The notes beneath the pieces are model-generated. The model saw nothing but the letters and a program-made list of their open reading frames with translations, was not told the origin of the DNA and searched no databases. Both the position numbers and the translations under genes were made by a program. Below are positions 15,773-46,168 of a DNA stretch of 64,000 nt, one piece after another. The stretch covers positions 142,128-206,127 of the forward strand of contig CAVVKW010000001.1 of assembly GCA_963749035.1 (NCBI GenBank), written 5' to 3'. The first letter of the stretch is position 1. Each line of letters begins with the position of its first letter. The stretch comes from an uncultured Verrucomicrobiae bacterium (GTDB lineage: Bacteria > Verrucomicrobiota > Verrucomicrobiia > Chthoniobacterales > JAATET01).

Positions 15773-18609
15773 ATGATCGCCACTGACCCGACCCCGCTCC
15801 CACCAGTCCCGACGCTCACCGACGAGCCCCCGCCGCACCGCCCCCGCCGTCCATTCCTCTTTCCCACCTCGGTCACTCACCCGTTCACTCTTGTCGGCGT
15901 TGCTCTCCTCCCGCAGATCATCCTGACGATTCTTAATCTTCAGACTTGGCATCTGATCTCGGGCGAAGTCAGCGCGTTGCAGCGAACGACCGCGCTCGCG
16001 CTCTTCTTCGGAGAGTGCCTCCTCTTGATCGGCTCAATCTCGCTCGTCACTTTCCTCGCACTCCGGCAGCGCCCGGTCACTCGTGCTTTCGGGCTTCCCT
16101 TGATGTTCGTCCCGGCACTCTACCTCGCCGCAGCCACGTGCTTCGGACCGGGCGCCATCCCAGCGTCGCTGACCACCTGGATCGTTCCGCCGGATCAATG
16201 GCTCGGCCGCCAATTTGTCTTCGTCGCACCGACCGTCCTCTACGGCGCGCTGCGTTTCGCCTGTCCATCCCGCGAAACTCCGGAAGCAAGCCTCACCTTT
16301 GGAGTGCTCGGTGTTCTGCTGCTGACTGGCGTGATGATCGGGCTCGGAGTTTTTGGCAGCGTCATGGCTTCGTTCGTCTCGACCGTTGCGCCCGCCTTCC
16401 CGGGACTTGCGACTTCTGTCGTCGTCGTTCCCATCGCTCTCGCGGGAGCCATCTGCTTCGGTATGATGCTGGTCGCGCTAATCCTGCGCATTGGCCTTTC
16501 GATGGACTCCGCCTCCCGGCGATCGAATCCTCGAGCGCTAGCCGCTTTCACCGCCGTCATCGCGATCCTCGGTCCCATCGGCGGATTGATTCTCAACGCG
16601 CAGATCCCCTTTCCCGCCGACTTCCAATCGCCCGCCATTTACGCTGCCGCGTTGCTTAATGGCATCCTGCTGACCCTTCCAAATTTCGCCCACCCCCTGC
16701 TTCATCGCGCCATCTGGCTTGGCCAATGCGCTCTGTTCCCGTTCACCGCCTACTTCTTCGTCGTTTTTCTCCCTTGGCTTCCGTTGACACCGGTCGCGAT
16801 CTGCTTCCTCGGCTTCGGCCTCCTGATGGTCGTGCCACCGCTCCTCTTCATCATCCACGGCGCCCGCATTCTCGACGGTTTCGCCGCCGAGGTGCGCGGC
16901 GGCAACGGCGTTGGTCCGGCCATTCTCGCTCTCACCGCGATCCTCGCGTGGCCCTTCGTTTTCACGCTCTCCGCACGGGCCGATCGAGCCGCCCTGCACG
17001 AGGCTCTCGACTACCTCACCTACCCGGACTACGCCGAAGCCGCACCGTTCGAGGGCGATCTGACTGCTCTGGAACGGAGCCTACGAAACCTCCGAAAATT
17101 CAAGACCGGCATCTACCTCCCGCTTCTGTCCGAATATCAGAACTGGCTGACGTTCGATAACCTCGTGCTTCCCGATGACCAGCTCGACGCTCTGGAAACC
17201 ACGTTCTTTGGCGAGGTCACTCCCGTCGAATCACTGGAAAATCCCAACCACGGATTTGGCTTCGCCACCCGAGACAATCGCCGCCTGGCTTCCCGCGTTC
17301 TCGACTCGCCCAACGGCGAACGGCCTTCGACCCACGCCGTCACGCAATCCATCACGACGCAACCAATCCCCGGCGGCATCCGGGCCACGATGAAATTCCA
17401 TAATCCCACGACTGAAATCACCGAATACCAAACCGCATCCACCTTCCAACCAACGCCGCGATCACCGACTTCCACCTCACGATCGGGACAGACCGCGTTC
17501 CCGGCAATCTCTTCGAAGAGCGGGCCGCGGAGTGGGTTTACCGTAAGATCACCGAAGCCCGGCCCGTTCCCCGCGACCCCGCCATCCTGAAATACCTTTC
17601 GCCCGGTCACGTCGATCTCCGGGTCTATCCCGTCGCGCCGGGTGAAACCCGCACCGCCGAAATCGATTTCGCCATCCCGGAAAGCTCGGCTCATCTCGTC
17701 ACCATCGACCACCAGCCGATCGTCACTCGGCGCGCTCCCCCGGTCCCGCCGCGCCCAGCCGCCTCGACCCCCTCGACCCCCTCGACCCCCGTGACGCCTC
17801 ATTTCATCGCCGACCTTTCGGTCGACTCCACTCTCGCCGACCCCGCCACCCTCCTCGCTCTCCTTCGGACGTCCGCCGCCCAGCTCGACCTCCCGGATCC
17901 CGTCCGCATCTCGTTCGTGAACTACGAACTCCGAGACTTCCGCGACGGTCGCCCGGTCAATCTCGAGACCCTCACTCCCGGCGAACTCGCCTCCGAGCTT
18001 CCTCCCGCTCGCGGCGGTTTCCTCGAATCTCGCGCCATCAAGACCCTGATCCGCCGCGCGTTCGATCGACCCGGCACCCTTCCCACGCTGATCGTTCTCC
18101 GTGACAGGAACACAGCTGCCCCCGCCCCCGACGAAGAAATCTCCTGGTTCGCTGCGCTTGTCCCCGGCTTGGACGAATACACCCTGGTCACCACCGCACA
18201 AAACGAACCGCGCGTCATCCCACTCACCACCCATCCGACCCAACGTCTCTCGTATCGACCATCACCCGTCCGCTCCGGGAATCCCACACCCGCGGATGCG
18301 ATGAATCTCGCTCTCGAAAGGATCTTCTCCCCCACGCCAGAAAACAAAAACCGTCTCACCGAATTGCTGACCCTCGCTCGTGAGACGGGAACGCTCGTTC
18401 CCTCGACCGCCTACATCGTCGTTGAAAACAGCGCGCAGTGGAAAATGCTCGAACTCACCGAAAAGAAAACGACCTCCGGCCACGAGGCGCTCACCCTCAG
18501 CGGAGAGCCCGCCGCCACCCCGGAACCCGCGACCATCGCCCTGCTAATTCTTGCAGGCGCGGCCCTTTTCTTCCACCACCGCCGGAAACATCGGCCGCTG
18601 CCCGCGTGA
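15773..18609 (+). pseudogene. Frameshifted gene: polytopic membrane domain + VIT-like domain + C-terminal PEP-CTERM sorting signal
   Basis: ORF 15773..17590 (frame 2) and ORF 17791..18609 (frame 1) belong together. Frame 1 is open from 17416. It reads NRIHLPTNAAITDFHLTIGTDRVPGNLFEERAAEWVYRKI... (VIT-like), continuing ...ATMKFHNPTTEITEYQ from frame 2. C-terminus: TPEPATIALLILAGAALFFHHRRK (PEP, TM helix, basic cluster). Confidence 0.75.
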
Positions 18610-24319: not shown

Positions 24320-25044
24320 CGAGCGACGCGACCGAGAGCCTCCCGCAGCCGCCCCTGCGCTGCCCGCCCGAGCCGCAATGGGTCCTCTCGACCTTCCAAC
24401 CACAGCAGCCCCTCGTCCCGCGACACGCGCCGCCAACGCCGCACCAACGCCCGGTTCACGATTCGGGACCGGTCGATTCGCACGAAAATCTCTTTCGGTA
24501 GAACGCCTCCATAATTTCCCAGTGATCGGCAAATCAACACCGGCTTCTCTCCCGCCACGAAAACCCGGGTGAAGTCGCCGTCCGCCTCCAACGCCACCAA
24601 TTTCGAAACACCCGTAACCAACGTCCGGCCCGGTGTTCGCAGGCAAATTCGGTCCCCCGCCGCGTAACACTCCTCACCCCCATCGGCCGTTTCACACACC
24701 GCCCGCAATCGGTTGACGGCCGCCTCCAAGCGACTCACCCGCACCGGTTTCAGCATGTAATCGACCGCGTCGATTTCAAACGCCCGAACCGCGTGTTCAG
24801 CGTGCGCCGTCACGAACACGACCCTCGAGCCCGCCGCGATTTCCCGGGCCAATTCGAACCCATCCCCGAGCGGCATCTGCACGTCGAGAAAGATGCCGAC
24901 TGGCCTCTCCCGCTCGATTAGCTCGAGCGCCGACTTCAGTCCGTCCGCCTCCCCGACAATCTCCACCCCCCCGATCTGCGACAGCGCGCGCCGCAAGGCC
25001 TGCCGCGCCAACCGCTCATCGTCGACCACCCCTACGCGAAGCAC
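24316..25044 (-). CDS. LytR/AlgR-family response regulator (receiver + LytTR)
   Basis: Receiver (VVDDERLARQAL..., FLDVQMPLGDG) plus a LytTR-type C-terminus. Overlaps the kinase gene. Confidence 0.88.
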   Translation of the reverse strand: MLRVGVVDDERLARQALRRALSQIGGVEIVGEADGLKSALELIERERPVGIFLDVQMPLGDGFELAREIAAGSRVVFVTAHAEHAVRAFEIDAVDYMLKPVRVSRLEAAVNRLRAVCETADGGEECYAAGDRICLRTPGRTLVTGVSKLVALEADGDFTRVFVAGEKPVLICRSLGNYGGVLPKEIFVRIDRSRIVNRALVRRWRRVSRDEGLLWLEGREDPLRLGRAAQGRLREALGRVAR

Positions 25045-26063
25045 GGCTCGCCCTCCAACGCCAGTTCCGCCCCGACCACCCCGTTACAATGACTGAGTTC
25101 GAAGGTCGATCGCCCCGGATAATGCAGCGCCAATCTCCTCCGCAACGTCTCCAACCCCACGCCCTCCACCACCTCCAGCGACTCCGGGATCCTCCCCGGA
25201 TTCGTCACCAGAATCCGTAACGTTGCCCCCTCGGACGTCGCCACCACCCCGATGACGCACCGTTCGGCCTTCAACCCGTGCTTCACCGCGTTCTCCACCA
25301 GAGGCTGCAGCAAAAAACTCGGCACCAGTCTCCGCCGCGCCAGGGTTTCCGCCTCGACCGTCGCCTCCATCCGTTCCCCGTATCGAACCTGCTCGATCCG
25401 CAGATACGCCACCATCGCGTCGATCTCCGTCGCCAGCGGAGACACGAGGTGATGCCGCTGATCGAGGGAAAACCGCAGGTAATCCGCCAATTCATGAATC
25501 ATTTCCTCCGCCGCCTCCGGTCGCTCCGGGATTTCCGCAGCCACGCTGTTCAGAGAATTGAAGAGGAAGTGCGGATCGAGCTGCGCCCGCAACAAATCCA
25601 ACTCGACGCGCTCGGCCTGCTGCAAAGCCCCCACCGCCAACCGCCGCGACCGCAAAGCGTAGAACGCCAGACTCCAGCTCAGAAACGCAAACCAACTGAA
25701 GACCAACCGCAACAACCACTCCTCCCTCGACGACCAACCCGGCGGCGTGGAATCCAAAACGTCCGACCACCCCCGCGCGATCGCCGCCGTCACGATTGCC
25801 GCTAGAAAACTTACGCCGACAAGCATCGCGGCCGTCACCACGCCAAAGTTGTCCTCCGGCTGCGTTCGCTGGTATGCCCAGAAAAGGATTCCCGAAATCA
25901 GAAACGCGATCGGCTCCAGAACGACCGTGAAAAGCAACGCCGAACCGACACTTTGGAACAACAGACACCGAATCCCGAACGCCACCACCGCAAACGCACT
26001 CCACGCCAGAAAATTCCAGCGCCAGAACGCCCAACGATCCTCCCAACCACGAGTCAGCATCAC
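25032..26063 (-). CDS. LytS/YehU-type sensor histidine kinase
   Basis: Multi-TM N-terminus, His_kinase motif LDPHFLFNSLNSV, and an HATPase region. Confidence 0.88.
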   Translation of the reverse strand: MMLTRGWEDRWAFWRWNFLAWSAFAVVAFGIRCLLFQSVGSALLFTVVLEPIAFLISGILFWAYQRTQPEDNFGVVTAAMLVGVSFLAAIVTAAIARGWSDVLDSTPPGWSSREEWLLRLVFSWFAFLSWSLAFYALRSRRLAVGALQQAERVELDLLRAQLDPHFLFNSLNSVAAEIPERPEAAEEMIHELADYLRFSLDQRHHLVSPLATEIDAMVAYLRIEQVRYGERMEATVEAETLARRRLVPSFLLQPLVENAVKHGLKAERCVIGVVATSEGATLRILVTNPGRIPESLEVVEGVGLETLRRRLALHYPGRSTFELSHCNGVVGAELALEGEPCFA

Positions 26064-26194
26064 CCCGACGCTATCACCACAGCCGGTCGGAACCTAATCA
26101 ATCCGCACGCGAGCCCGCCCGCTTCACCGAGTTCTGCGCCTGACTCGTCGAGTTCCGCTTTTCAACCCCCCAACGACGGACCGATTCATTCGGT

Positions 26195-29100
26195 ATGTCA
26201 CGGCCCTCCCTCCGCTCCGTCCTCCTCTGTTTCGCATTCCTCCCCCTCGCTCACCAATCGACCTTCGCCCACGGATCGATGGCCGATCCCATCAGCCGCT
26301 CCTACGACGTCTTTCTCGGGAATCCCCAGACGCCTGACAACCCGGCCCACGTCGCCGCCATCGCCGCCGCAGGCACGCAGGCCTTCTACGACTGGCACGA
26401 AGTCTCCGGCCTTTTTCCCGACTTCGACTACCAAGCCAGAATCCCCGACGGGCAACTCCCCGGAGTCGGTCGCGCCAAATACGCCGGCCTCGACCTCGCT
26501 CGCGCCGACTGGCCCGCCACCCCCGTTGCCCCCGGCCCCTACGCCTGCACCTTTTACGCTGCCACTCCCCACGACCCCTCATTCTTCGAACTCTACCTGA
26601 CCAAACCCGGCTACGATCCCACCGCCCCCCTCCGGTGGTCCGATCTCGAGCGCTTGCCCGATCCCACCGACACCCGGCTCGAGGGATCGAACTACAAGTT
26701 CACCGCCAACCTTCCCGCCCGCACCGGTCGTCACGTGCTCTACGTTATCTGGCAGCGCATCGACCCCGCCGGCGAAGCCTTCTTCTCGACCAGCGATCTC
26801 AGCTTTGACGGTGGCTCCAACCCCAACCCAACTCCAAACCCCGCTCCAACCCCCACCCCAGGGAGCCACCACGGCCACGCCACGCTCGATGTCACCAACG
26901 ATTGGGGGGCCGGCTTCGTCGGTCGAATCCAAGTCGAAAATTCCACGCACTCCCCCCTCCGGGAATGGACCGTGCAATTCGATCTCGACCGCCAGATCGT
27001 CGGCCTCTGGGACGGCGAGATCGTGTCCCAAGTCGGCAACACCTACGTCGTTCGCAACGCCCCGTGGAATGGCACCGTCTCCGCCCACGGCTCCCTCTCA
27101 TTCGGAATCCAAGCCAGCGGCGGGGATGGCACCGTCCAGCCCACCCACGTCAAGTTTCTCAACGCCACACCAACACCAACACCAACACCAACACCAACAC
27201 CAACACCAACCCCGACTCCGCAACCAACTCCCACACCAACGCCAACGCCAACGCCAACGCCAACGCCAATCCCAATCCCAACCCCGACGCCAACCCCGAC
27301 GCCAACCCCGACGCCGCAACCAACTCCCACGCCAACTCCAACTCCGACTCCGACTCCGACTCCGACTCCGACTCCGACTCCGACTCCAACGCCAATCCCC
27401 GGATTGCCGAACACCACCGTCGAGCTCGCCGAGGCTCGGATCACCTTCACCGTCTCGAGCGATTGGGGCAGCGGATTCGAAGCCCGCGTCGAGATTCGGA
27501 ATTTGACCGCCCAACCGCTGCCGGCTTGGAAACTCACCTTCGATCTTCCGCGCGCCATCCAAAACATCTGGAGCGCCCGGATCTCTGCGACCTCGGGAGA
27601 CACCCGCACCATCGACGCCCAGCCATTCGCCTGGAACGCGACCATCCCCGTCGGCGGCAGTCAATCATTCGGCTTCATCGGTGAATCCGGCGGACTTACG
27701 CAACCACCCACGAACTTCTCACTCACCCACAGCGGCACTTCCCCTACTCCTACTCCTACTCCTACTCCTACTCCTACTCCTACTCCTACTCCGAGCCCGA
27801 CACCGACACCCACCCCGACACCGACACCGACACCGACACCGAGTCCAACTCCCGCTCCGTCGCCATCTCCGACACCCGCTCCGTCGCCGACTCCGACGCC
27901 CACCCCCGGCGAATACAACTACGGCGAGGTCCTGCAAAAATCCCTCTACTTCTACGAAGCCCAGCGTTCCGGCGTCCTCCCGCCCGACACCCGCGTCGCG
28001 TGGCGAGGAAACTCCGCCGTCGCCGACGGTGCCGACGTCGGCCTGGACCTCACCGGCGGCTACTACGACGCCGGCGACCACGTGAAATTCGCCCTCCCGA
28101 TGTTCAGCACGCTCACCCTCCTGGCGTGGGGCGGTATCGAATACCCCTACGGCTACGGCACCGAACGCGACACCCTGCTCGACACCGTCCGCTGGGGCAC
28201 CGACTGGATTCTCAAAGCCAACCCCGCACCGAACGTTCTCTACGGCCAGGTCGGCAACGGCGGCCTCGATCACTCCTACTGGGGTCCCGCCGAGACGATG
28301 ACCATGCCCCGCCCGGCCTACGCCATCACCGCACAAGCGCCCGGCACCGAGATCGCCGCCGAAGCCGCCGCCGCCCTCGCCGCCGCGTCGCTCCTCTTCC
28401 AGGACGACGACCCCACCTACGCGGCAACCCTCCTCACCCGATCCCGCCAGCTCCACGTCTTCGCCGACACCCACCGCGGCACCTACGTCGACGCCATCCC
28501 CGATGCCGCCGCCTACTACTATTCCTACTCCGGCTACTTCGACGAACTCATGTGGTCCGCCGCCTGGCTCCACCGCGCCACCGGCGAAGCCGCCTATCTC
28601 CAGCAAGCCGAATCCATCTTCGCCCAGAAATGTTCCAACGCCACCCCTCGCTGGACCCACAACTGGGACGACAAAGGCTACGGCGCCGCCCTCCTCCTCG
28701 CCCAACTCACCGACAAACCCGCTTACAAAACCATCACCGAACGCTGGCTGAACTACTGGACCACCGGCGACAACGGCGCCCGCGTCACCCACACCCCCGG
28801 CGGCCTCGCCTGGCTCGCGAAGTGGGGCAGCCTCCGCTACGCCACCACCACCGCTTTCCTCGCCGGACTCTACGCCGACCGCGTCCGTGACGTCGGCACC
28901 CGCTACGCCGATTTCGCCAAACGCCAGGTCGACTACGCACTCGGCGACAACCCCACCAGCCGTTCCTACGTGGTCGGCTTCGGTCAAAATCCGCCCGTCC
29001 ACCCGCACCACCGCGGAGCCCACGGTTCATGGGCAAATTCCATCACCTCCCCCGCCGACAATCGCCACGTCCTCTACGGAGCCCTCGTCGGCGGGCCATC

Positions 29101-29722
29101 CGCCCCGTCCGACACCGCCTACGAAGACGACCGATCCAACTACATCGATAACGAAGTCGCCCTCGACTACAACGCCGGCTTCACCGGGGCCCTCGCCCGC
29201 CTCGCCTCCCTCCACGGCGGTTCCCCCCTCACCAACTTCCCGCCAGCGGAAATCCCCGACGACGAATTCTTCGTCGAAGCCGCCATCAACGCCTCCGGCC
29301 CCACCTTCACCGAGATCCGCGCCTTCCTGAACAACCGCTCCGCCTTCCCCGCCGGTGCGTCCGACTTCCTTTCGTTCCGCTACTACCTCGACCTCACCGA
29401 ACTGATCGCCACCGGCTACCAACCGACCGACCTCACCCTCACCACCGGTTACAACCAAGGTGCCACCGTCACCGGGCCGTTCCTCCACGACGCCGCGCGA
29501 GACCTCTACTACCTCCTCGTCGACTTCACCGGCACCCGCCTCGCCCCCGGCAGCTCACAGACCTTCCGCAAAGAAGTCCAATTCCGCATCACCGCCCCCA
29601 CCGCCGCCTGGGACCCCGCCAACGACCCTTCCTACCAAGGCCTCGGCACCGGTACACCAGCACTCTCCGATCACCTCCCGGTCTTCCAGATCAACGACCT
29701 CCTCGGCGGCCAGATTCCGTAG
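26195..29722 (+). CDS. Secreted multimodular enzyme: AA10 lytic polysaccharide monooxygenase - CBM2 - PT linker - CBM2 - PT linker - GH9 endoglucanase - CBM3c
   Basis: Signal peptide ends ..STFA|[12 protein letters not shown], so His would be residue 1 of the mature protein. AA10 region parallels CBP21-type LPMOs ([27 protein letters not shown]). Two CBM2-like modules ([14 protein letters not shown].., [14 protein letters not shown]..). GH9 motifs [31 protein letters not shown]3c-like tail. Approximate nt: AA10 26270-26810, CBM2a 26880-27160, CBM2b 27410-27735, GH9 27908-29240, CBM3c 29250-29719. Confidence 0.9.
27168..27400. repeat. Tandem hexamer DNA repeats encoding PT linker 1
   Basis: Runs of (ccaaca)n, (ccaacg)n and (ccgact)n. 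Confidence 0.9.
27744..27906. repeat. Tandem hexamer DNA repeats encoding PT/PS linker 2
   Basis: Runs of (cctact)n and (ccgaca)n. Confidence 0.9.
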
Positions 29723-32883: not shown

Positions 32884-32907
32884 TAAAGTCCTTTGAACGG
32901 ACAACCC

Positions 32908-35262
32908 ATGCAGTTCTTCGCCCACACCGATCCGGACCACCCCGATCCCGGCGATGCCGCCCGGCATTGGGAGCCCCTCTTCACGCCGTTCGGCGAAGGC
33001 CCGGACGAATGCCGGCAAGACGCCTGCAAAAGGTGCGAGTCGCTTGACCGCTTCCACGGCCACCTCAACAAAGTCGCTTGGTGGACCGCCAAATTCGCCG
33101 CAGAAATGTTTCCCCCCGGCCCCGACCGGGAATCCGCCCACCAATGGGGCACCCTCACCGGCCTCTGGCACGACCTCGGGAAATTTGCACCTGAGTGGCA
33201 GGACTATCTCGAAGCTAAATCCGATCCTCACTCGACCGAGATCGCCGGAAAACTCGATCATTCGTCGGCCGGAGCCCGACACGCCGTCAGCCGAATTCCC
33301 CACGTCGGCACCTTCCTGGCCTACTTAATCGCCGGACATCACGCCGGTTTGGCCGACGGAATTTCCGACTCGAATACCAGTCTCGAAAACCGCCTTCGAC
33401 TGCGCCCCACGTCTCTCGACGGCCCACCCGAACTTCTCGCGTTCGCAAATACTCTCCCACCCATTCCCCTAGCATCCGACTCCGGCCCCAGCCACGCATT
33501 TTTCCTCCGCTTCCTCTTCTCCGCCCTCGCCGACGCCGACTTCCTCTCCACTGAGGCGTTCATGTCCGCCGATCGCGCCCGCTTCCGCCCCACCGCGCAG
33601 CCCTCCATCGCCGCTCTCGAATCCACCCTTACCACCCACCTTGAGAATCTCGCCAGCAAAGCCCGCCCGTCCCCCGTCAATCAATACCGCGCCAACATCC
33701 TTCGCGATTGCCGATCAGCGGCCAACGCCCCCCCCGGCCTCTTCTCCCTCACCGTCCCCACGGGCGGCGGGAAGACCCTCTCGTCCCTGGCTTTCGCCGT
33801 CAGTCATGCCCGCATTCACGACCTCCGACGGATCATCTACGTAATCCCCTACACCTCCATCATCGAGCAAAACGCCGCTGTCTTCCGGGAAGCCCTCTCC
33901 GCACTCGGCCCGGACGTCGTCCTTGAGCATCACTCGAGCTTCGACCCCGACAAGGAGACCACCACCTCCCGCCTCGCCACCGAGAACTGGGACGCCCGCC
34001 TCATCGTCACCACCAACGTCCAATTTTTCGATTCCCTCCACGCTCACAAAACCTCCCGCTGCCGAAAACTCCACCGCATCGCCCGTTCGGTCGTCATCCT
34101 CGACGAGGCCCAATCCCTTCCCACCAAGTTTTTAGCCCCCTGCCTTCGCACCCTCGAAGAACTCACAGCCCACTATCAGACCTCCGTCGTTCTCTGCACC
34201 GCGACCCAGCCCGCCATCATCCGAAACGATGAATTTAAAATCGGCCTCCAGCCGCCCCGTGAGATCATCCCCGATCCCGCCGACCTCTACCAGTCCCTCC
34301 GCCGCGTCACCACCACCCGCCTACCTGGAAAAACTCTCGACGAACCCCTCATCCACCACCTTCGCGATCACCCCCAGGCCCTCTGCATCGTCAATACCCG
34401 CCGCCACGCCCGTTGTCTCTTCGACCTGCTTCCGAACGATCCCGCTCGTTTCCACCTTTCCGCCCTCGTGTGTCCCGAGCACCGCACCGAAAAGCTCCGC
34501 ACTATCAAACACCGTCTCGACACCGACCTCTCCGTTCATCTCATCTCGACTCAACTCATCGAAGCTGGCGTCGACATTGACTTCCCCGTTGTCTTCCGAG
34601 CACTCGCCGGTCTCGACTCCATCGCCCAATCGGCAGGCCGCTGCGATCGCGAAGGCCGCCTCACCGCCGCAGCCGGCACTCCCGCCGGCCGCCTGTTCCT
34701 TTTCGAGCCACCAGCCGCTCCACCTCCCGGCTTTCTCGCCTCCACCGCCGCCTCCGCCGCCGAAGTCCTGTCCGCCGACCCGACTGATCCCCTCGATCTC
34801 TCCGTGATCGAATCCTATTTCCGGACCCATTACTGGAAACACGAGAACTCCACCGACGAAAAAAACATCCGCGACTGCTGGCCGCGCGAGCCGCTACGGC
34901 ATCCCCGCCAACTCCTCCAGTATAAGTTCAAGACCTGCGGCGAAACCTTCCGCCTGATCGATAACGACTACACGCAACCCGTCCTCATCCCCTACGGCGA
35001 CAAAGGCCGTCACCTCTGCGACCTGCTCCGCGAGACTTTCGACCCCTCCGAAATCCGCGACCTCGCCCGAAAGCTCCAGCGCTTCACCGTCAACATCCCC
35101 CCACACCAGCACGCCGCCCTACTTCGTGCCGGAATTCTCATCCCCCTCCACGACACGCGCTTTTTTCTTCTCAATTCCGCGCCACACTACGACGACGAAT
35201 GCGGCCTCCATCCCGAGCCCGACCTCACTCTCGACCCCTGCCATTTTCTTATCGCCGGATGA
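32908..35262 (+). CDS. cas3: Cas3 HD nuclease / SF2 helicase (type I-C)
   Basis: HD region (HLNKVAWW..LWHDLGKF..LDHSSAGARH); helicase motifs (TVPTGGGKT, VILDEAQ, LCTATQP); C-terminal domain. ATG 32908 preferred over TTG 32893. Confidence 0.95.
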   Translation: MQFFAHTDPDHPDPGDAARHWEPLFTPFGEGPDECRQDACKRCESLDRFHGHLNKVAWWTAKFAAEMFPPGPDRESAHQWGTLTGLWHDLGKFAPEWQDYLEAKSDPHSTEIAGKLDHSSAGARHAVSRIPHVGTFLAYLIAGHHAGLADGISDSNTSLENRLRLRPTSLDGPPELLAFANTLPPIPLASDSGPSHAFFLRFLFSALADADFLSTEAFMSADRARFRPTAQPSIAALESTLTTHLENLASKARPSPVNQYRANILRDCRSAANAPPGLFSLTVPTGGGKTLSSLAFAVSHARIHDLRRIIYVIPYTSIIEQNAAVFREALSALGPDVVLEHHSSFDPDKETTTSRLATENWDARLIVTTNVQFFDSLHAHKTSRCRKLHRIARSVVILDEAQSLPTKFLAPCLRTLEELTAHYQTSVVLCTATQPAIIRNDEFKIGLQPPREIIPDPADLYQSLRRVTTTRLPGKTLDEPLIHHLRDHPQALCIVNTRRHARCLFDLLPNDPARFHLSALVCPEHRTEKLRTIKHRLDTDLSVHLISTQLIEAGVDIDFPVVFRALAGLDSIAQSAGRCDREGRLTAAAGTPAGRLFLFEPPAAPPPGFLASTAASAAEVLSADPTDPLDLSVIESYFRTHYWKHENSTDEKNIRDCWPREPLRHPRQLLQYKFKTCGETFRLIDNDYTQPVLIPYGDKGRHLCDLLRETFDPSEIRDLARKLQRFTVNIPPHQHAALLRAGILIPLHDTRFFLLNSAPHYDDECGLHPEPDLTLDPCHFLIAG

Positions 35263-35352
35263 CCCTCTCCTTCTGCACGAACGCAAGGTTGAAATAAGCC
35301 CTATTCTCAATAGGCTTCTGCAAAAGGGAAATACCAAGACCGACCCGCGACC

Positions 35353-35586
35353 ATGCAAACCATCGACTGCGCCCACATCCCATTCCCCGCATCACTCCTT
35401 GAGTCGCTTAAACACGGCGAAACGATCGCCGTGCTCGACAAATCCCGCACGCTCGCCTTCATCGTTCCCGGGTCACCTTCCACTAAATCCCGCCCGTTTG
35501 GTTGCGCCAAGGGAGAATTCACGCTCGCCGACGACTTCAACGACCCGGACCCGGAAGTCGAAAGCCTGTTCTACGGAACAAACTGA
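35353..35586 (+). CDS. Phd/YefM-like type II antitoxin (PIN-associated)
   Basis: 77 aa. The C-terminal RPFGCAKGEFTLADDFNDPDPEVESLF is the typical tail of antitoxins paired with VapC-type PIN toxins. Same architecture as the antitoxin at 57333. Confidence 0.7.
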   Translation: MQTIDCAHIPFPASLLESLKHGETIAVLDKSRTLAFIVPGSPSTKSRPFGCAKGEFTLADDFNDPDPEVESLFYGTN

Positions 35587-35593
35587 ATCGCAA

Positions 35594-35691
35594 AATCGAA
35601 TCCCCGACCCGCAAAAACGAGCCGGGGAAATTCGATGGCAATGAGAGCCTTCGGATTAGAATTTCAATCCCCACCACGAAATCGTAGCGAC
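35594..35691 (-). ncRNA. Candidate degenerate mini-CRISPR RNA (psi-repeat, 34-nt psi-spacer, hairpin/terminator), creA/creR-like
   Basis: Minus strand 35691->35661 reads GTCGCTACGATTTCGTGGTGGGGATTGAAAT; the array repeat is GTCGCCCCCTCACACGGGGGCGCGGATTGAAAC. The first 5 nt are identical and 9 of the last 11 match. A replacement 6-bp stem (CGCUAC/GUGGUG) with a 6-nt loop keeps the geometry. A 34-nt spacer-like segment follows (35660->35627). Then comes a 10-bp hairpin CCCCGGCUCG-UUUUUG-CGGGUCGGGG (35627->35602) followed by AUUCGAUUUUG, starting where the next repeat would start. Confidence 0.6.
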
Positions 35692-35694
35692 CTC

Positions 35695-35726
35695 TTGACA
35701 ATAGCTGCCCAACCTCTATTGTTCAA
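35695..35726. promoter_or_regulatory. Palindromic pair of overlapping divergent sigma70-like promoters
   Basis: TTGACAATAG-n11-CTATTGTTCAA. Plus strand: TTGACA (35695-35700), 16 nt, TATTGT (35717-35722). Minus strand: TTGAAC (35726->35721), 17 nt, TATTGT (35703->35698). The predicted minus-strand TSS (about 35691) is the first nt of the psi-repeat. Confidence 0.5.
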
Positions 35727-35729
35727 GCC

Positions 35730-35766
35730 TTCTCTAAACAGAATGCTCTATGTCCACCGTTAGATA
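35730..35766 (+). promoter_or_regulatory. TTC-PAM-flanked partial protospacer matching the psi-spacer (candidate Cascade operator)
   Basis: TTC (35730-35732), then TCTAAACAGAATGCTCT, against psi-spacer TCTAATCCGAAGGCTCT. That is 14/17 identical, with mismatches at positions 6, 8 and 12. Identity is 4/17 over the remaining positions. The site lies between the predicted plus-strand TSS and the PIN ATG (35770). Confidence 0.55.
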
Positions 35767-35769
35767 GAT

Positions 35770-36153
35770 ATGAATTTTCTCTGCGATACTCATGCCTTTC
35801 TTTGGTTCGCCGGCGGGGATTCACGACTGCGTCAGGATCAGCGAGAAGCCCTCGAGGACACCGGAAACATCATTTTCCTAAGTTCGGTCTCATCCACTGA
35901 GATTGCCATCAAGCACAGCATCGGCAAACTCCCGTTGCCGGAATCCCCCGAGATCTACGTTCCACGGCTTCGCGAACGAGTTCAATTTTCGGAACTCCCG
36001 TTGGATGAACGAGCGTCCCTCCGCCTCGCGACCTTACCCCTCCTCCACCGCGATCCCTTTGATCGCCTCCTGATCTGCCAAGCTCTCACCCTCGAAATCA
36101 CAATCGTAACCTCCGACTCCCACGTCCGCCAATACGACGTCCCGACCCTCTAA
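35770..36153 (+). CDS. vapC: PIN-domain (VapC-like) toxin embedded between cas3 and cas5
   Basis: FLCDTHAFLWF...EIAIKHSIGKLPLP...HRDPFDRLLICQA...IVTSD. Same subfamily as the free-standing PIN at 57566. Confidence 0.85.
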   Translation: MNFLCDTHAFLWFAGGDSRLRQDQREALEDTGNIIFLSSVSSTEIAIKHSIGKLPLPESPEIYVPRLRERVQFSELPLDERASLRLATLPLLHRDPFDRLLICQALTLEITIVTSDSHVRQYDVPTL

Positions 36154-36162
36154 TCTCACCCC

Positions 36163-36849
36163 ATGTCCTACGGTATCAAAATCCACGTCTGGGGCGAATT
36201 CGCCTGTTTCACCCGCCCGGAAATGAAAGCCGAGCGCGTTACCTACGAAGTCATCACGCCCTCAGCCGCCCGCGGCATCCTCGAAGCCATTTACTGGAAG
36301 CCCCAAATCCGCTGGGTCATTGACAAACTTCACCTCCTCACCCCCGTCCGCTTCACCAGCATTCGCCGTAACGAAGTGGGCAAAAAAATGTTCTCGCCCT
36401 CTCAATCCGTCATGAGCAGCGCAGAGCCGGTCACCGTCGGACTTGCCGTCGAAGACGAGCGCCAGCAACGCGCCTCTCTCGTCCTCCGCGATGTCGCCTA
36501 CATCATCGAAGCCCATTTCGAACTCATCGACCGCACCGAACCCGAAGGCAAGCACCTCGACATGTTCAACCGCCGCGCCCGCCGCGGCCAATACTTTCAC
36601 CATCCCTATCTTGGTACCCGCGAATTCCCCGCCGACTTCGCCCTCATCGAATCCGATCACCCCGCTTCACAGCTCCCGCCCGCCAACCGCGACAGGGACT
36701 TCGGCTTCATGCTCCACGACATCGAATTCGATCAGGATCCCCGGACCAAAAAAGTCCGCAACACCACGCCCCGCTTTTATCCAGCCGTCATGAAGAATGG
36801 CGTCATCGACGTGCAGCAATGCCTTCGCAACTCCCCCCTCGGTCGATGA
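36163..36849 (+). CDS. cas5: Cas5c (Cas5d) crRNA endoribonuclease, type I-C
   Basis: MSYGIKIHVWGEFACFTRPEMKAERVTYEVITPSAARGILEAIYWKP is the canonical Cas5 I-C N-terminus. Confidence 0.93.
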   Translation: MSYGIKIHVWGEFACFTRPEMKAERVTYEVITPSAARGILEAIYWKPQIRWVIDKLHLLTPVRFTSIRRNEVGKKMFSPSQSVMSSAEPVTVGLAVEDERQQRASLVLRDVAYIIEAHFELIDRTEPEGKHLDMFNRRARRGQYFHHPYLGTREFPADFALIESDHPASQLPPANRDRDFGFMLHDIEFDQDPRTKKVRNTTPRFYPAVMKNGVIDVQQCLRNSPLGR

Positions 36850-38729
36850 TCCTCCAATCGCTCAACCAGCTTTACGGACGCCTCGCCGAAGACGACGACT
36901 ACCAACTCCCCCAGCCCGGCTACGCCACTCAGAACATCACCTTCCGCATCGTTCTTAATCCCGACGGCTCCCTTCAAAACATGGAAGACGCCCGCCAACC
37001 CATCACCGAGACACTCAGATCGGGAAAGACCAAAACCAGGCACGTCCCCCGGCAAATGCTCGTTCCCGATCTCGGCGGACGCACTTCCGGCATCAAACCC
37101 TACTTCCTCAGCGACAAACTCGCCTACCTCACCGGCTACGACAAGGACTCCGGCAAACGCGCCTTGGCGGAAAACCAGTTCGCCGCCTCCAAAGAGCTTC
37201 ACATCGCACTCGCCGCCCAGATCGAATCCGACGAATTCAAAGCCGTCTGTGCTCATTTCGAGCACTTCCACTGGGAGACCGCAACCGATCTGCTCGAAGA
37301 ATGCGCCCCATTCGCCTCCACCGGCTTCGGTGTTTTCCGCGTCCTGCCGGTCCGCGCCAACGTCCACGAACTCCAATCCATCCGCGACTACTGGGCCGCG
37401 AGAAAACCAGCCGCAACGGATGAACCCGAAACCGAAGGCCAATGCCTCGTCACCGGCGAAACCCTCCCGCTCGCCAGAATTCACGAGCCAAAATTTGGAG
37501 GCTTCGGAACCGACAAGCCCCTCCTAGTCTCCTTCAACGACCCAGCCTACCGCTCCTACGGCAAAGACCAATCCTACAACGCCCCCGTCTCCCGCCAAGC
37601 CACCTTCCAATACTGCAACGCCCTCAACGCACTCCTCTCCGGCCCTCGCTCCCACCGCCATCGCATTACGATCGGTGATGTCACCACCGTCTTTTGGACC
37701 GAACACGAAACCATCATCGAAGAGAAATTCGCCGCATTCTTCCGGGGCGAAATTGACACTCCTGAGAACCCGGCATCCCCGGCATCCGAAGACCGCAACG
37801 CCCACCAACGCCTCGACGCATTTCTTCGCCTCTTCCGCCGGGGCTCAGCCACCACTCTCGAAGACCTCGACGTCGATCCCGGCACAAAATTTTACATCCT
37901 CGGAGTCTCCAAGGTCACCAAAAGCCGCCTCGCCGTCCGTTACTGGCACGTCGGCACCATCCGCGAAATGATCGGCCGCCTCCGCGATCACTTCGACTGC
38001 CTCGCCATCCAACGCGCTTTCGACAACGAACCCGAATTCCCCTCCGCCAATCGCCTCCTCGATCAGACCGCCCCATTTCGAAACGGCAAATACGACCGCA
38101 AGACCATCTCCCCACTCCTCGGCGGCCAGCTTCTCCAGTCCATCCTTGGAGGCACACCCTATCCAATTGCCCTCGTCCAAGGCGTCCTTCACCGCCTCCG
38201 CGCCAACGACCCCATCAACTATCTCAAAGCTTCCATTCTCAAAGCCTTCCTAACCCGCAACCGCCAACAACCCATCCCCATGAGCCTTAATTTCGAAATC
38301 ACCGAACCCGCTTACCTAATGGGCCGCCTCTTCGCAGCCTTGGAAAAAACCCAGGAAGACGCCCTCGGCAAAGTCAACGCCGGACTCCGCGAGCGTTTCT
38401 ACGGCAGTGCATCCGCTTCGCCAGCGAGCGTCTTCCCCCGCATCCTTCGAACCTATCAGCATCACCTTGCCAGAATGACTAGCGGAGCTTTGGCCGATCA
38501 TGTCGGAGCGGAGAGGGCCGCGAAGGCAAAGGTCAGTCGCGAAAAATTAATCCGATCCATTCACGACTCAATCGATGCGAATATCGGCTATCCCGTTCAT
38601 TTCACATTGGAGGAACAGGGGCTGTTCGCCATCGGCTATTACCAACAGCGCCAGGCATTTTTTAAACCTTCTGGATCATCATCCGATCTCAACAACCAAG
38701 ACTCAACCACCACCCAAACCAACCCATGA
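36846..38729 (+). CDS. cas8c: Cas8c large subunit (Csd1), type I-C
   Basis: [17 protein letters not shown]... with an ATGA overlap onto cas5. Size and position are typical. Confidence 0.9.
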
Positions 38730-39583
38730 ACCGCACCGACTTCATCTACCTCTTCGATTGCACCGACGCCAACCCGAACGGCGACCCCGACGCCGGCAAC
38801 CTTCCCCGCCTCGATCCCGAGACCGGCCAGGGCCTCACCACCGACGTCATGCTCAAACGGAAAATCCGCAATTTCGTTCAACTCACCAAAGGCGACGACC
38901 CCGGCCACGACATCTACGTCAAAGAAAAAGCCGTCCTCAATAACCAGCACGCCCGGGCCTACCAGGCACTGGAGCTCGATCCGAAAAAGGCAAAACAGGA
39001 ACAGCGCGATCAGGCTAAGGCGTGGATGTGCCAGAATTTCTACGACATCCGCACCTTCGGAGCCGTCATGACGACAGACGTGAATTGCGGCCAGGTCCGC
39101 GGTCCCATCCAACTCTCCTTCGCTCGCTCCATCGACCGAATCGTCACCGCCGAGCACTCAATCACCCGCATGGCCGTCACGAAAATCGAAGACGCCGGAA
39201 AGCAGTCCGGAGACAACCGCACCATGGGCCGCAAATTCACCGTCCCCTACGGCCTCTACAAAGCCCAAGGCTTCATCAACCCCTTCCTTGCCAAACAAAC
39301 AGGCTTCGACGACGACGATCGTGAGCTTCTGTTTCACGCGCTCGAAAACGCCTTTCAGTTCGACCAATCCGCCGCCCGCCCCGCAGGCTCCATGGCACCC
39401 CGCGCCCTGATCATTTTCGAACACAACTCCGAACTCGGTAGCGCCCCCAGCAATAAGCTTTTCGAGAGCGTTACCATCACACGCAAACCCGGTGTCACTA
39501 CCCCCCGATCCTTCGCCGACTACGAAGTCACCATCGACGAATCCGCCATCCCCGACGGCATCACCCTCACCCGCCGAATCTGA
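38726..39583 (+). CDS. cas7: Cas7c backbone subunit (Csd2), type I-C
   Basis: [34 protein letters not shown].. is the Csd2 signature. ATGA overlap with cas8c. Confidence 0.93.
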
Positions 39584-39650
39584 AGCCGGCAGATCCGGGC
39601 CCTCCAGGCCCGAACTCCTCTCAACTCTCAACCATCAACTCTCACCCCCC

Positions 39651-40280
39651 CTGCCTGACTCCCTCCCCATCTCCGCGCTCCAACATTTGCTCTATTGCGA
39701 GCGGCAATGCGCGCTCATTCACATCGAGCGCCTCTGGACCGAGAACGTCTTCACCGCCGAAGGACGAGCCATGCACGAACGCGCGCACGACGGCCCCTCC
39801 GAATCACGCCCCGGCATTCGCACCGCCCGCGGGCTCAGCCTCATCTGTCAGCGGCTCGGTCTTCACGGCCAGGCTGACGTCGTCGAGTTCCATCGAGACG
39901 GCCCAGTCATCCCCGTCGAATACAAACGCGGTAAACCCAAGGCCCATCGCGCCGACGAAGTTCAACTCTGCGCCCAAGCCCTCTGCCTCGAGGAAATGCT
40001 CGGCCGCGAAGTCCCTTCCGGCAGCTTGTTCTACGGAAAAACCCACCGACGCCTCGACGTTGCTATCGATGCAGAGCTGCGCAAACTCACCGAGTCACTG
40101 ACAACCCGCCTCCACGCTATGGTTGCGGCCCGCGACACGCCACCACCGATTTTCGAATCCAAAAAATGCGGCGCGTGTTCCCTCATCGACGACTGCCTCC
40201 CTCGTCTGTCGAAACGGCCACGAGCTGGCGCCTGGTTCGAACGTCAGCTCCACACCGCCTTGACCCATGCAGACGAATAG
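39651..40280 (+). CDS. cas4: Cas4 RecB-like exonuclease (start codon unresolved)
   Basis: PISALQHLLYCERQCALIHIE..., and the C-terminal Cys cluster KKCGACSLIDDC. There is no ATG/GTG/TTG in frame between the cas7 stop and the conserved N-terminus. Options are CTG 39651, or ATG 39492 (92-nt overlap with cas7). Confidence 0.85.
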   Translation: MPDSLPISALQHLLYCERQCALIHIERLWTENVFTAEGRAMHERAHDGPSESRPGIRTARGLSLICQRLGLHGQADVVEFHRDGPVIPVEYKRGKPKAHRADEVQLCAQALCLEEMLGREVPSGSLFYGKTHRRLDVAIDAELRKLTESLTTRLHAMVAARDTPPPIFESKKCGACSLIDDCLPRLSKRPRAGAWFERQLHTALTHADE

Positions 40281-40295
40281 ACGATTTTAATCTGC

Positions 40296-40508
40296 ATGAG
40301 AACGACACTTAACCTCGATGACGACCTCATCGGTCAAGCCATGGAACTGACCGGAATCACGCAGAAAACCGAACTACTCCACCGCGGCCTACGCGAGCTC
40401 ATCGAACGCGAAGCCGCGCGACAACTCGCTGAGATGGGCGGCACCGCACCCGACTTCCAGCTCGCTTCCCGGCACCGCCGCCAAAAATGCCATGCCCGTC
40501 CTCGTTGA
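40296..40508 (+). CDS. vapB: VapB-type antitoxin (MRTTLNLDDDL family) between cas4 and cas1
   Basis: MRTTLNLDDDLIGQAMELTGITQKTELLHRGLRELIERE. Overlaps the downstream PIN gene by 17 nt. Confidence 0.85.
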   Translation: MRTTLNLDDDLIGQAMELTGITQKTELLHRGLRELIEREAARQLAEMGGTAPDFQLASRHRRQKCHARPR

Positions 40509-40875
40509 TACGTCCGTCTGGGTGGATCATTTGAATCGCGGTGAGCCCGCCCTCGCCCGCCTCCTTAGAGCGGGACGCGTCTGCACCCACGAGATCGTCC
40601 TCGGCGAGCTTCTCAGCGGCAACTTACCGGCTCGTTCACGAACGTCGGCAATCTTCCTCAACCTCCCCCGCCTGCAAACTGAGAAGTTTAAAGTAACACT
40701 CCGCTTCATCGAACATCACCGTCTCCACGGCCGAGGTTTGAATTGGAATGATCTCGGACTGCTCGCGTCCGTGGCAGTGGCCGACGCCTCCGAATTTTGG
40801 ACCCGAGACAAAACTCTTCGAACTTCCGCCGCCGAAATCGAAATCCCGCTCTTCGACGAAGGCATCAGCGACTGA
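40492..40875 (+). CDS. vapC: PIN-domain VapC toxin between cas4 and cas1
   Basis: MPVLVDTSVWVDHLNRGEP...THEIVLGELL...DLGLLASV. Confidence 0.85.
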   Translation: MPVLVDTSVWVDHLNRGEPALARLLRAGRVCTHEIVLGELLSGNLPARSRTSAIFLNLPRLQTEKFKVTLRFIEHHRLHGRGLNWNDLGLLASVAVADASEFWTRDKTLRTSAAEIEIPLFDEGISD

Positions 40876-40935
40876 CCTCTAGCCACACACCAGACACCAC
40901 TCAACTCTCAACTCTCAGCGACCGTCCCACCTCGC

Positions 40936-41955
40936 GTGAAGATCCACCTTAACACCCTCTTCGTCACCCGCGAAGACACCTATCTCGCCAAGGACGGAGC
41001 CGCCGTCGACGTCCGGAAAGACGGCAAATCCCTCCTCCGCGTTCCGCTACATAACCTCGATGGCATCGTCGCCCTCGGCTACGACATCGGAGCCAGCGCG
41101 CACCTCATGGCCGCCTGCGCCGAAGCCGGTGTCACGCTCTCCTTCTGCACACCCAACGGCCGCTTCCTCGCCGCCGTCCGCGGATTCACCCCCGGCAATG
41201 TTCTCCTCCGCCGCACGCAATACCGCATTTCCGACGACCTTAACGCCTCCCTCCACATCGCCCGCCCCATGATCGCCGCCAAGCTCGCGAACACGCGCAC
41301 CGTCCTCCAGCGAGCCACCCGCGACCACGGATCAACTCCCGAGATCGACGCCGCCGCCGCCTGGCTCGCTCGCAGCGCACAGAAAGCTCACCGCACCAAC
41401 GACCTCGACGCCCTTCGAGGAGTGGAAGGCGACGCCGCCGGGGCCTACTTCGAAGTCTTCGCAAAATTGATCAAGGCCGACGGATTTGCCTTCCCCGGCC
41501 GCATCCGCCGCCCACCCACCGATCCCGTCAACGCGCTCTTATCCTTTCTCTACAGTCTGCTCGCGCACGATTGCCGCTCCGCGCTCGAATCCGTCGGCCT
41601 CGACGCCGCCGTCGGCTTCCTGCACCGCGACCGCCCCGGTCGCCCCTCGCTGGCACTCGACCTAATGGAGGAATTTCGACCCGTCCTCGCCGACCGCGCT
41701 GTCCTGACCTTGCTCAACCGACGGCAATTGAACGGAAAAGATTTCCGCACCGGAGAACTGGGCGCAGTCGAACTCACCGACGACGCCCGCAAGTCCGTCC
41801 TTACGACCTGGCAGGAGCGAAAGCGCGACGAAATCACCCATCCATTTCTGGACGAAAAGACGACCATCGGACTCCTACCATTTCTACAGGCCCGCCTCTT
41901 GGCGCGGCACCTCCGCGGTGACCTCGACGCCTATCCCGCCTTTCTTTGGAAATAG
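40936..41955 (+). CDS. cas1: Cas1 integrase, type I-C (GTG start)
   Basis: [24 protein letters not shown]... [12 protein letters not shown]... typical Cas1. Confidence 0.94.
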
Positions 41956-41959
41956 CGCC

Positions 41960-42250
41960 ATGCAACTCCTCATTACCTACGACGTCGCCACCAGCACCGA
42001 AGGAGGAGCCCGCCGCCTGCGCCGCGTCGCCAAAGTCTGTCTCGACTACGGCCAACGCGTCCAAAACTCCGTCTTCGAATGCGCCGTCGATCCCGCCCAA
42101 CTCGTCGAAATGAAAACCCGCTTGCTGGACATCGCCGACCTCGATCACGATTCTCTCCGGTTCTACAACCTCGGAGCCGAGTGGGACCGCCGAGTCGAAC
42201 ACTTCGGCACAAAGCCCTCGATCAATCCCCGGGGACCACTCATCATCTGA
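41960..42250 (+). CDS. cas2: Cas2
   Basis: [41 protein letters not shown]. Start at the internal ATG 41960 of ORF 41918..42250. Confidence 0.93.
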
Positions 42251-42428
42251 ACCGCGAACCCAAAGCAGTCAGAAGTCACTTAAGGAGTTCGCGGGCAGCA
42301 GAAGCGACTGACTGCTAACGCTCTTTGAAAATGTGACCCCGAATCAGCTTTCTGAGGGAAGCATCATCGCGAGAGTTCGCGCAAAATCTTTCTCGGGCAA
42401 TTGATGCTGAACGCTTTAGTATCCAAGG
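42251..42428 (+). promoter_or_regulatory. CRISPR leader
   Basis: 178-bp AT-richer non-coding stretch between cas2 and the first repeat. The degenerate terminal repeat is at the distal end, so the array reads on the plus strand. Confidence 0.7.
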
Positions 42429-46090: not shown

Positions 46091-46168
46091 GTCGTCGATC
46101 TAGCGATGAAGGCCGCCAACATTGATTCAAACTCTAGAAAGTCGGTAAACGACCCATCCTCGCCTCAG

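Follow-up and report, generated by a model that had tools for sequence, protein, structure and literature searches.

The gene at positions 26195-29722 of a 64-kb stretch of DNA from an uncultured Verrucomicrobiae bacterium of the order Chthoniobacterales (contig CAVVKW010000001.1; the whole stretch of 64,000 nucleotides is called the window here) joins a lytic polysaccharide monooxygenase (LPMO) of auxiliary activity family 10 (AA10) to a family 9 glycoside hydrolase (GH9) in one uninterrupted open reading frame (ORF), and this combination is reproducible across genomes. The gene product is very probably a secreted bicatalytic enzyme that acts on crystalline beta-1,4-glycan outside a cellulosome, and its hydrolytic half can be named a cellulase with high confidence. 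All of its modules are of known families, and the LPMO-GH bicatalytic class is itself already known. Measured against the literature searched, the new elements are the partner, a GH9 followed by a family 3c carbohydrate-binding module (CBM3c); an AA10 subfamily specific to the Planctomycetota-Verrucomicrobiota-Chlamydiota (PVC) group, which lacks disulfides and carries Thr in place of Ala near the copper site; and a conserved regulatory module made up of a LytS-type kinase, a LytTR regulator and a candidate operator.

Domain architecture of the fused protein

The ORF encodes, in order, a signal peptide, the AA10 domain, a CBM2 module, an 85-residue proline/threonine-rich (PT) linker, a second CBM2 module, a 59-residue PT linker, the GH9 domain and the CBM3c module. 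The features of the gene are as follows.

26195-29722, + strand: bicatalytic ORF of 1175 amino acids; the ATG is the first start codon downstream of the upstream stop
26195-26269, + strand: Sec-type signal peptide, residues 1-25; predicted cleavage after TFA exposes His26
26270-26809, + strand: AA10 LPMO catalytic domain, residues 26-205; key residues His26, His126, Phe196, Glu194, Arg188, Trp186 and Tyr65
26879-27154, + strand: CBM2 module 1, residues 229-320; Pfam CBM_2; three surface Trp of type-A CBM2a kept
27155-27409, + strand: PT linker of 85 residues; Tandem Repeats Finder (TRF) array at 27170-27395, period 6/12 nucleotides, 81% matches
27410-27730, + strand: CBM2 module 2, residues 406-512; Pfam CBM_2 at about 413-511, best stretch 415-511
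27731-27907, + strand: linker of 59 residues rich in proline with threonine or serine (PT/PS); TRF arrays at 27743-27903
27908-29224, + strand: GH9 catalytic domain, residues 572-1010; full PF00759 profile; Asp625 and Asp628 (nucleotides 28067-28078) and Glu987 (nucleotides 29153-29155)
29225-29722, + strand: CBM3c, residues 1011-1175, and stop codon; PF00942; directly joined to GH9

A single reading frame holds five Pfam domains, and every match lies above its curated cut-off. LPMO_10 (PF03067) covers residues 26-202 and profile positions 1-183 of 183, with 139.4 bits against a cut-off of 23 (2.8e-40), CBM_2 is found in two copies (139.9 bits), Glyco_hydro_9 (PF00759) covers residues 576-1000 and profile positions 1-444 of 444 (498 bits, E = 3.5e-149), and CBM_3 (PF00942) is assigned to residues 1027-1107 with 29.9 bits against a cut-off of 22.4. 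A search of NCBIfam with the same protein returned sub-threshold partial matches only. An earlier note on this DNA, written from its letters and translated reading frames, had placed an AA10 domain at residues 26-205, followed by two CBM2-like modules, a complete GH9 domain and a CBM3c-like module, and Pfam assigns all of these. The motif HGSMADP lies at residues 26-32, DAGDHVKF at 625-632 and HHR at 938-940; a fourth motif quoted in that note lies at 986-995.

The leader, as read from the sequence, has two Arg in its n-region, a hydrophobic core and T/A at positions -3/-1, and all family members with a complete N-terminus show a leader followed directly by HGSM. A lipoprotein reading was rejected, given that VLLC in the leader does not match a lipobox and is not conserved. 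At the other end, no C-terminal sorting or anchoring domain was found, and the protein terminates with CBM3c, as does 8u49. The mature protein of approximately 1150 residues contains two Cys in all (C118 and C813), a total explained by an AA10 family without both reference disulfides and by CBM2 modules without the terminal Cys pair.

Recurrence of the fusion across genomes

The AA10-domain alignment was scanned against one genome per GTDB species, which gave at least 590 loci, and the best 80 of these were typed by BLASTP against the window protein's own domains. One ORF holds both AA10 and GH9 in at least 23 of those typed, and many of the others end at contig edges. Furthermore, 24 protein clusters combine PF03067, PF00553 and PF00759. 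Three orthologues align collinearly with the window protein over its full length: one from a Verrucomicrobiae metagenome-assembled genome (L001; 76.8% identity over 1179 positions), L003 (67.6%) and L006 (62.6%). The exact window protein was absent from a collection of 15 billion proteins, and L001 was the closest full-length relative found. The loci that encode AA10 and GH9 together include a chromosome-level assembly (L076) and cultured Cerasicoccus strains. The flanks of the window gene are also kept, with the kinase/regulator pair upstream and purU downstream in L002 and L006, and thrS after purU in L002. The architecture is common in genomes of Chthoniobacterales/Terrimicrobiaceae and other PVC bacteria that are already public, where the relatives, if named at all, are labelled only "glycoside hydrolase family 9 protein".

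These observations bear on the most mundane explanation of the fusion, namely that it is an artefact of assembly or annotation in which the linker DNA mis-joins separate AA10-CBM2 and CBM2-GH9-CBM3c genes or hides a frameshift. The linkers are indeed low-complexity tandem repeats of 226 and 158 nucleotides, of a kind prone to mis-joining in short-read assembly, the exact protein is missing from the large collection, and GH9 proteins without AA10 occur among the homologues (P0021, P0026, P0029 and P0030). However, the same domain order is found in the three collinear orthologues and in no fewer than 23 loci that represent different species and assemblies, isolates and chromosome-level L076 among them, and synteny holds on both flanks in L002 and L006. 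In addition, the repeat unit (6/12 nucleotides) is a multiple of three, so the gain or loss of whole units would not shift the frame, and one frame serves all domains. The earlier note had asked for the continuity of the frame across the linkers to be confirmed; no stop or frameshift is present in the ORF, and orthologues from independent assemblies carry the same fusion. A chimera or hidden frameshift in the linkers was therefore rejected on the strength of the collinear orthologues, the many loci and the conserved flanks, which exclude an artefact for practical purposes and leave it extremely improbable.

Two other arrangements were seen among the related loci. Isolates of Cerasicoccus frondis, C. 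maritimus and C. arenae (L057, L058 and L071) encode tri-catalytic proteins of approximately 1620 amino acids with the order AA10-CBM2x3-GH18-GH9, and because these strains are cultivable and carry LPMO, chitinase-family and cellulase-family domains in one ORF, they are experimentally accessible. In "Ca. Methylacidiphilaceae" MiH-22 (OZ239145.1, a complete chromosome of 2.05 Mb), locus L039:8762-15769 encodes 1946 amino acids arranged as AA10-CBM2-GH5-Calx-beta-He_PIGx6-CBM2-GH18.

The hydrolytic and binding modules

The hydrolytic half closely follows Thermobifida fusca Cel9A (E4; PDB 1js4/4tf4), a theme-B processive endoglucanase, and this had already been suggested in the earlier note. The alignment with E4 (1js4) is continuous over residues 574-1153, a span of 580 residues (E = 1.7e-206), and runs from GH9 straight into CBM3c; the alignment with 8u49 is likewise continuous over residues 574-1172, to near the protein end. 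As in theme-B enzymes, and as in the rigid GH9-CBM3c unit of Cel9A, CBM3c is attached to GH9 without a flexible linker. D625 and D628 align on the catalytic D55 and D58 of E4, and E987 on E424; the two Asp are invariant in the family alignment, and the Glu is kept in at least 90% of it. Equivalents of E4 F476, D513, Y520, R557, E559 and R563, which the Cel9A mutagenesis literature reportedly links to processivity, are kept in the E4-68 alignment of CBM3c. Processive endoglucanase activity is therefore probable, judging from approximately 60% similarity to E4 and from these CBM3c residues. A family 2 CBM is present in both proteins; however, Cel9A has the order GH9-CBM3c-Fn3-CBM2, with a C-terminal CBM2 and no LPMO, whereas the window protein carries its CBM2 modules and AA10 at the N-terminal side and has no Fn3.

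Both CBM2 modules resemble the type-A module of Cex. The best PDB matches of module 1 are the chitinase CBM2 of 6bt9 (1.7e-15) and the Cex CBM2a 1exg (2.2e-13), with DW, LW and PWN aligned, and the best match of module 2 is 1exg (1.2e-13), again with three conserved Trp. In both modules, Trp occupies all three positions aligned to the coplanar surface residues W17, W54 and W72 of Cex. The disulfide that links the N- and C-terminal ends of CBM2a is missing, as neither module contains Cys. In most relatives a Calx-beta domain lies between the second CBM2 and GH9; it is absent in the window protein, L001, L003 and L006.

The AA10 domain and its relatives

The AA10 domain retains the residues of a copper-binding LPMO site. 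In structural alignments by sequence, His26 falls on the first residue of the mature forms of Tma12 (6if7), CbpD (8c5n/7sqx), ScLPMO10D (7zjb) and CjLPMO10A (5fjq), in line with the earlier proposal that cleavage, which is predicted, exposes His as the first residue. No variation was seen, either in a full-length alignment of 25 sequences or in approximately 70 related loci, at the second brace His (H126), the axial F196, the gatekeeper E194, Arg188, Trp186 or the surface Tyr65. The closest PDB matches are Tma12 (6if7; 4.5e-50), CbpD (3.8e-49), ScLPMO10D (7zjb; 1.4e-45) and CjLPMO10A (7e-31). The nearest structurally characterised AA10s, at 47-51% identity, are CbpD of P. aeruginosa, ScLPMO10D of S. 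coelicolor (subclade A2) and Tma12 of a fern. These share with the window domain the His brace, the Phe, the second-sphere Arg and Glu (WQR...E.F) and the L2 motif YDW(N/H)EVN. The differences lie in the disulfides (two in those proteins, none in the window domain), in the motif around the second His (T/S-A-x-H against A-T-P-H) and in the polar pair (Asn-Thr/Ser against His68/Ala123). On the C-terminal side, those proteins carry GbpA2/CBM73, a sortase anchor or nothing, and never a GH.

In a neighbour-joining tree, the AA10 sequences of PVC bacteria form one clade, sister to Tma12/ScLPMO10D/CbpD, and the window domain belongs to this uncharacterised family of Verrucomicrobiota and Planctomycetota. 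A survey of Planctomycetota stated that no AA10 of that phylum had been analysed so far (PMC11131199). None of the approximately 70 clade members retains any of the four Cys that form the two reference disulfides. Two positions before the second brace His, the four reference structures all have Ala, whereas each PVC family member has Thr or, in some cases, Val/Ile. This Ala, within T-A-x-H, is a conserved feature of characterised AA10s and not a formal family criterion, and it has been described as shaping the AA10 copper site (PMC9344471). The so-called polar pair of the clade is mostly His68 with a variable residue 123, and the chitin-type Asn/Thr is kept only in some unfused planctomycete members. 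Neither the key residues nor the tree separated AA10 domains fused to GH9 from those fused to GH18. An AlphaFold2 model of the domain, built from an 8-sequence alignment, reached a mean predicted local distance difference test (pLDDT) score of 69, with the L2 region below 50, and was not used for residue-level claims.

The divergent kinase/regulator pair and a candidate operator

The bicatalytic gene is divergent from genes for a sensor kinase and a response regulator, and the intergenic region of 131 bp contains a tandem repeat.

25032-26063, - strand: LytS/YehU-type sensor histidine kinase, 343 amino acids; His_kinase PF06580 (2.6e-23); approximately four N-terminal transmembrane helices
24316-25044, - strand: response regulator with receiver and LytTR domains, 242 amino acids; Response_reg (6e-21) and LytTR (6.9e-7)
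26123-26155, + strand: tandem direct repeat, putative LytTR operator, consisting of TTCACCGAGTTC, 9 nucleotides and CTCGTCGAGTTC; 21-bp period; ends 39 nucleotides before the ATG

TBLASTN placed the pair directly next to the AA10-led gene, on its upstream side, in at least 29 loci (kinase identity 37-69%), and the linkage holds with either GH9 or GH18 as the C-terminal partner. The half-site of the repeat is TTCAnCGAGTT, and with up to 3 mismatches the repeat is the sole match in the window, where 0.09 would be expected. The upstream regions of other loci were searched with a pattern that allowed a spacing of 20-22 bp. Hits came from 17 other loci, in each case with a spacing of exactly 21 bp and at a distance of 43-110 bp before the start codon of the AA10 gene; one of the 17 is doubtful by eye, which leaves approximately 16 loci, and two come from near-identical loci. 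The consensus of 16 sequences is TTCAnCGAgTTT..GCCcG.TTCgnCGAGT.

Classic LytTR operators, such as those of AgrA and ComE, consist of two imperfect direct repeats approximately 21 bp apart from centre to centre, just upstream of the promoter. The window locus shares with AgrA/ComE/AlgR-type systems both this arrangement of direct repeats and the pairing of a PF06580-type membrane kinase with a receiver-LytTR regulator, while its half-site TTCAnCGAGTT differs from the published LytTR consensus. The repeat at 26123-26155 is thus a putative LytTR operator, to which the regulator would bind. The earlier note had recognised the divergent LytS/LytTR system, as the Pfam matches of both genes agree, and had suggested that it could regulate the gene; for the latter part the support is comparative, in the form of linkage and a conserved repeat. 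To our knowledge, no link has been reported between this type of regulator and an LPMO or cellulase gene.

Some related loci have further elements in this region. In seven loci, a cupin-domain gene of approximately 1.1 kb lies between the kinase and the AA10 gene; in L039 it encodes a protein of 338 amino acids, and the same layout is seen in L017, L023, L038, L045, L047 and L048. On visual inspection, these loci too show a similar repeat just before the AA10 gene, one that falls outside the pattern used in the search. A cupin protein beside an LPMO gene might supply co-substrate, for instance as an oxidase. Separately, a GGTCAA(C/T)G element near the kinase start occurs in most related intergenic regions and may be part of the kinase promoter; the version in the window, at 26064-26110, has diverged (GGTCGGAACCTAATCAATCC).

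Proposed mechanism and alternative explanations

The mechanism considered here would begin with Sec export and cleavage of the leader, which would expose His26 so that it could form the copper histidine brace with His126. The two type-A CBM2 modules on their long PT tethers would then dock the protein on a crystalline surface, where the LPMO would make oxidative chain breaks. The Cel9A-type GH9-CBM3c unit, tethered by the 59-residue linker and with extra reach from the 85-residue one, would take the loosened or nicked chains processively. E4 is reportedly seen in structural work to release cellotetraose from the non-reducing end, and if the window enzyme acts in this way, a nick by a C1-oxidising LPMO would leave a native non-reducing end for GH9. 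Intramolecular oxidative-hydrolytic synergy would result, by the precedent of the AA10-CBM5-GH18 enzyme Jd1381. The neighbouring LytS-type kinase and LytTR regulator most likely govern expression through the repeat of 21-bp period, which would lie just upstream of the promoter. The ORF, its domains and catalytic residues, the recurrence of the fusion, the synteny and the conserved repeat were observed directly, while outer-membrane secretion, copper binding, the LPMO substrate, processivity, synergy and regulator binding are the parts of this scheme that we infer.

Several observations weigh against this scheme. The nearest characterised AA10s (CbpD, ScLPMO10D, CjLPMO10A and Tma12) are chitin-active or predicted to be so. 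The cellulose-active ScLPMO10C, TfAA10A and ScLPMO10B (structures 4oy7, 5uiz and 4oy6) match the AA10 domain at only 1e-17 to 1e-21, approximately 25-30 orders of magnitude worse than its nearest relatives do. Thr124 (A123-T124-P125-H126) stands where characterised AA10s conserve Ala, and the polar pair His68/Ala123 fits neither the pair typical of chitin-active AA10s (Gln/Asn with Thr/Ser) nor that of cellulose-active ones (Phe with Trp); with both sites outside the published patterns, activity and specificity are not readable from known rules. The same type of AA10 is also fused to GH18 chitinases, and the GH18-fused L033 and L041 nest among the GH9-fused L022, L035 and L036. Furthermore, no outer-membrane export route was identified for the protein, no other cellulase or beta-glucosidase was found in the window, and a simple scan for a sigma-70-like promoter and an intrinsic terminator found none.

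One alternative is an enzyme with two substrates, in which AA10 oxidises chitin only and GH9-CBM3c hydrolyses cellulose, with no synergy on a single polymer. Such an enzyme would target mixed or alternating materials, for example fungal, oomycete or algal walls or aquatic detritus. In its favour, the best PDB relatives are of the chitin type, activity on chitin has been shown by experiment for CbpD and ScLPMO10D and is only predicted for Tma12 (PMC10067821, PMC9344471), relatives of the window protein join this AA10 type to GH18, to GH18 with GH9 or to GH5 with GH18 in one polypeptide, and the closest match of CBM2 module 1 is a chitinase CBM2. However, the chitin-type polar pair is lost in the fused proteins (H68/A123 in the window protein). 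AA10 subclade A holds both cellulose- and chitin-active enzymes, ScLPMO10D's own subclade A2 adjoins the cellulose-active subclade A1 (PMC10067821), and the authors of both structural papers call the specificity motifs provisional (PMC10067821, PMC9344471), so that these motifs are an acknowledged unreliable guide. Selection would also be unlikely to keep an LPMO on a cellulase with CBM2a modules in many lineages if it were inactive where those bind. The two-substrate enzyme is accordingly given a real though less than even chance. It is unlikely that the AA10 module has lost its catalytic function or taken on another, such as that of a binding module or copper chaperone, so that GH9 would be the sole enzyme. 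This could be argued from Thr124 (Val/Ile in some relatives) in place of the Ala that shapes the copper site, from the loss of all four Cys of the Tma12/CbpD/ScLPMO10D disulfides, from the low pLDDT of a model built on a shallow alignment, and from the existence of non-catalytic AA10-like proteins in other subclades, such as A3 without the His (PMC10067821). Yet His26, His126, Phe196, Glu194, Arg188, Trp186 and Tyr65 are strictly kept across approximately 70 members at 60-85% identity, which is the pattern expected under selection for catalysis, and the N-terminal His directly follows the leader in every complete sequence.

The reading of a bicatalytic enzyme for crystalline beta-1,4-glycan is thus retained, with the substrate of its oxidative half graded separately: cellulose, or cellulose together with chitin, is held to be about an even prospect, chitin alone somewhat below that, and the remainder is left to another substrate or inactivity. 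The description of both halves as cellulose-degrading modules in the earlier note stands for GH9-CBM3c; for AA10, whose nearest characterised relatives are chitin-active and whose type is also fused to GH18 and GH5, cellulose is a candidate substrate only. A wider and more speculative proposal is that the PVC-specific subfamily, free of disulfides and with a remodelled copper site (Thr/Val for Ala; His for Asn/Gln), acts on cellulose as well as chitin, with broad or dual specificity. The domain would then serve as an interchangeable oxidative "warhead" that has been recombined repeatedly with GH9, GH5 and GH18 and is switched on by a dedicated LytS/LytTR system and tandem operator. This proposal is put forward tentatively, as one that may well prove wrong.

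Genomic surroundings

A carbohydrate-active enzyme cluster or polysaccharide utilisation locus was considered as the context of the gene and rejected, as the neighbours are galK, purU, thrS, metH, a penicillin-binding protein, a hybrid kinase and a type I-C CRISPR-Cas system. The CRISPR-Cas locus extends over 32893-46150, with Cas3 at 32893-35262, Csd1/Cas8c at 36819-38729 and more cas ORFs to approximately 41955. Its array, from 42429 to approximately 46150, contains approximately 55 repeats of GTCGCCCCCTCACACGGGGGCGCGGATTGAAAC with a period of approximately 67 bp. The + strand of the window (1-64000) is C-rich throughout, with a GC skew below zero (-0.04 to -0.37) in all 2-kb bins irrespective of gene orientation; this strand asymmetry is unusually strong, most of all at 24-40 kb. 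The ORFs at 15773-17590 (605 amino acids, + strand) and 60578-62110 (510 amino acids, - strand) had no Pfam match at E <= 1e-5.

Known bicatalytic enzymes and implications

According to a 2023 review, the sole characterised LPMO-GH bicatalytic enzyme is the AA10-CBM5-GH18 protein Jd1381, for which intramolecular synergy between LPMO and GH was shown by experiment (PMC10154629). Jd1381 (JdLPMO10A, from Jonesia denitrificans) and the window protein both place an N-terminal AA10, a CBM and a C-terminal GH in one secreted polypeptide, and both are expected to show intramolecular oxidative-hydrolytic synergy. However, Jd1381 combines a GH18 chitinase with one CBM5, whereas the window protein combines a GH9-CBM3c cellulase with two CBM2 modules and very long PT linkers. 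Jd1381 comes from an actinobacterium, whereas the window protein comes from a Gram-negative member of the Verrucomicrobiota, has an AA10 of a different, uncharacterised clade and is known here from its sequence. GH5 and GH18 are the partners of AA10 domains listed in the structural literature (PMC10067821). No paper describing an AA10-GH9 fusion was found in a literature search that left most subscription journals and CAZy outside its scope, so that absence is not proof; the earlier note likewise named no characterised one. Its view that LPMO-GH fusions are rare agrees with the single characterised case (PMC10154629), although the architecture, while unstudied, is not unique, given its recurrence in PVC genomes.

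Synergy between LPMOs and cellulases is the basis of modern biomass-degrading enzyme cocktails, and the only natural LPMO-GH fusion to have been characterised acts on chitin. The AA10-CBM2-CBM2-GH9-CBM3c enzyme offers a ready test of whether tethering benefits cellulose deconstruction, how linker length matters and how the hydrolase deals with oxidised chain ends. If the wider proposal on the PVC-specific subfamily is true, it would be the first natural fusion of an LPMO to a processive cellulase in which intramolecular synergy on cellulose could be tested directly, and no earlier case would be known of a regulatory circuit dedicated to an LPMO fusion. Through the conserved kinase/regulator pair and the candidate operator, the induction of such enzymes also becomes accessible. 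As the AA10 family breaks several published rules of specificity and active-site composition and has both cellulase and chitinase partners, it should be informative on how LPMOs choose their substrates. A stable-isotope study classed Chthoniobacterales/Terrimicrobiaceae as non-cellulolytic secondary consumers (PMC8545098). With these fusions, Chthoniobacterales and Terrimicrobiaceae possess genes for direct attack on crystalline polysaccharides.

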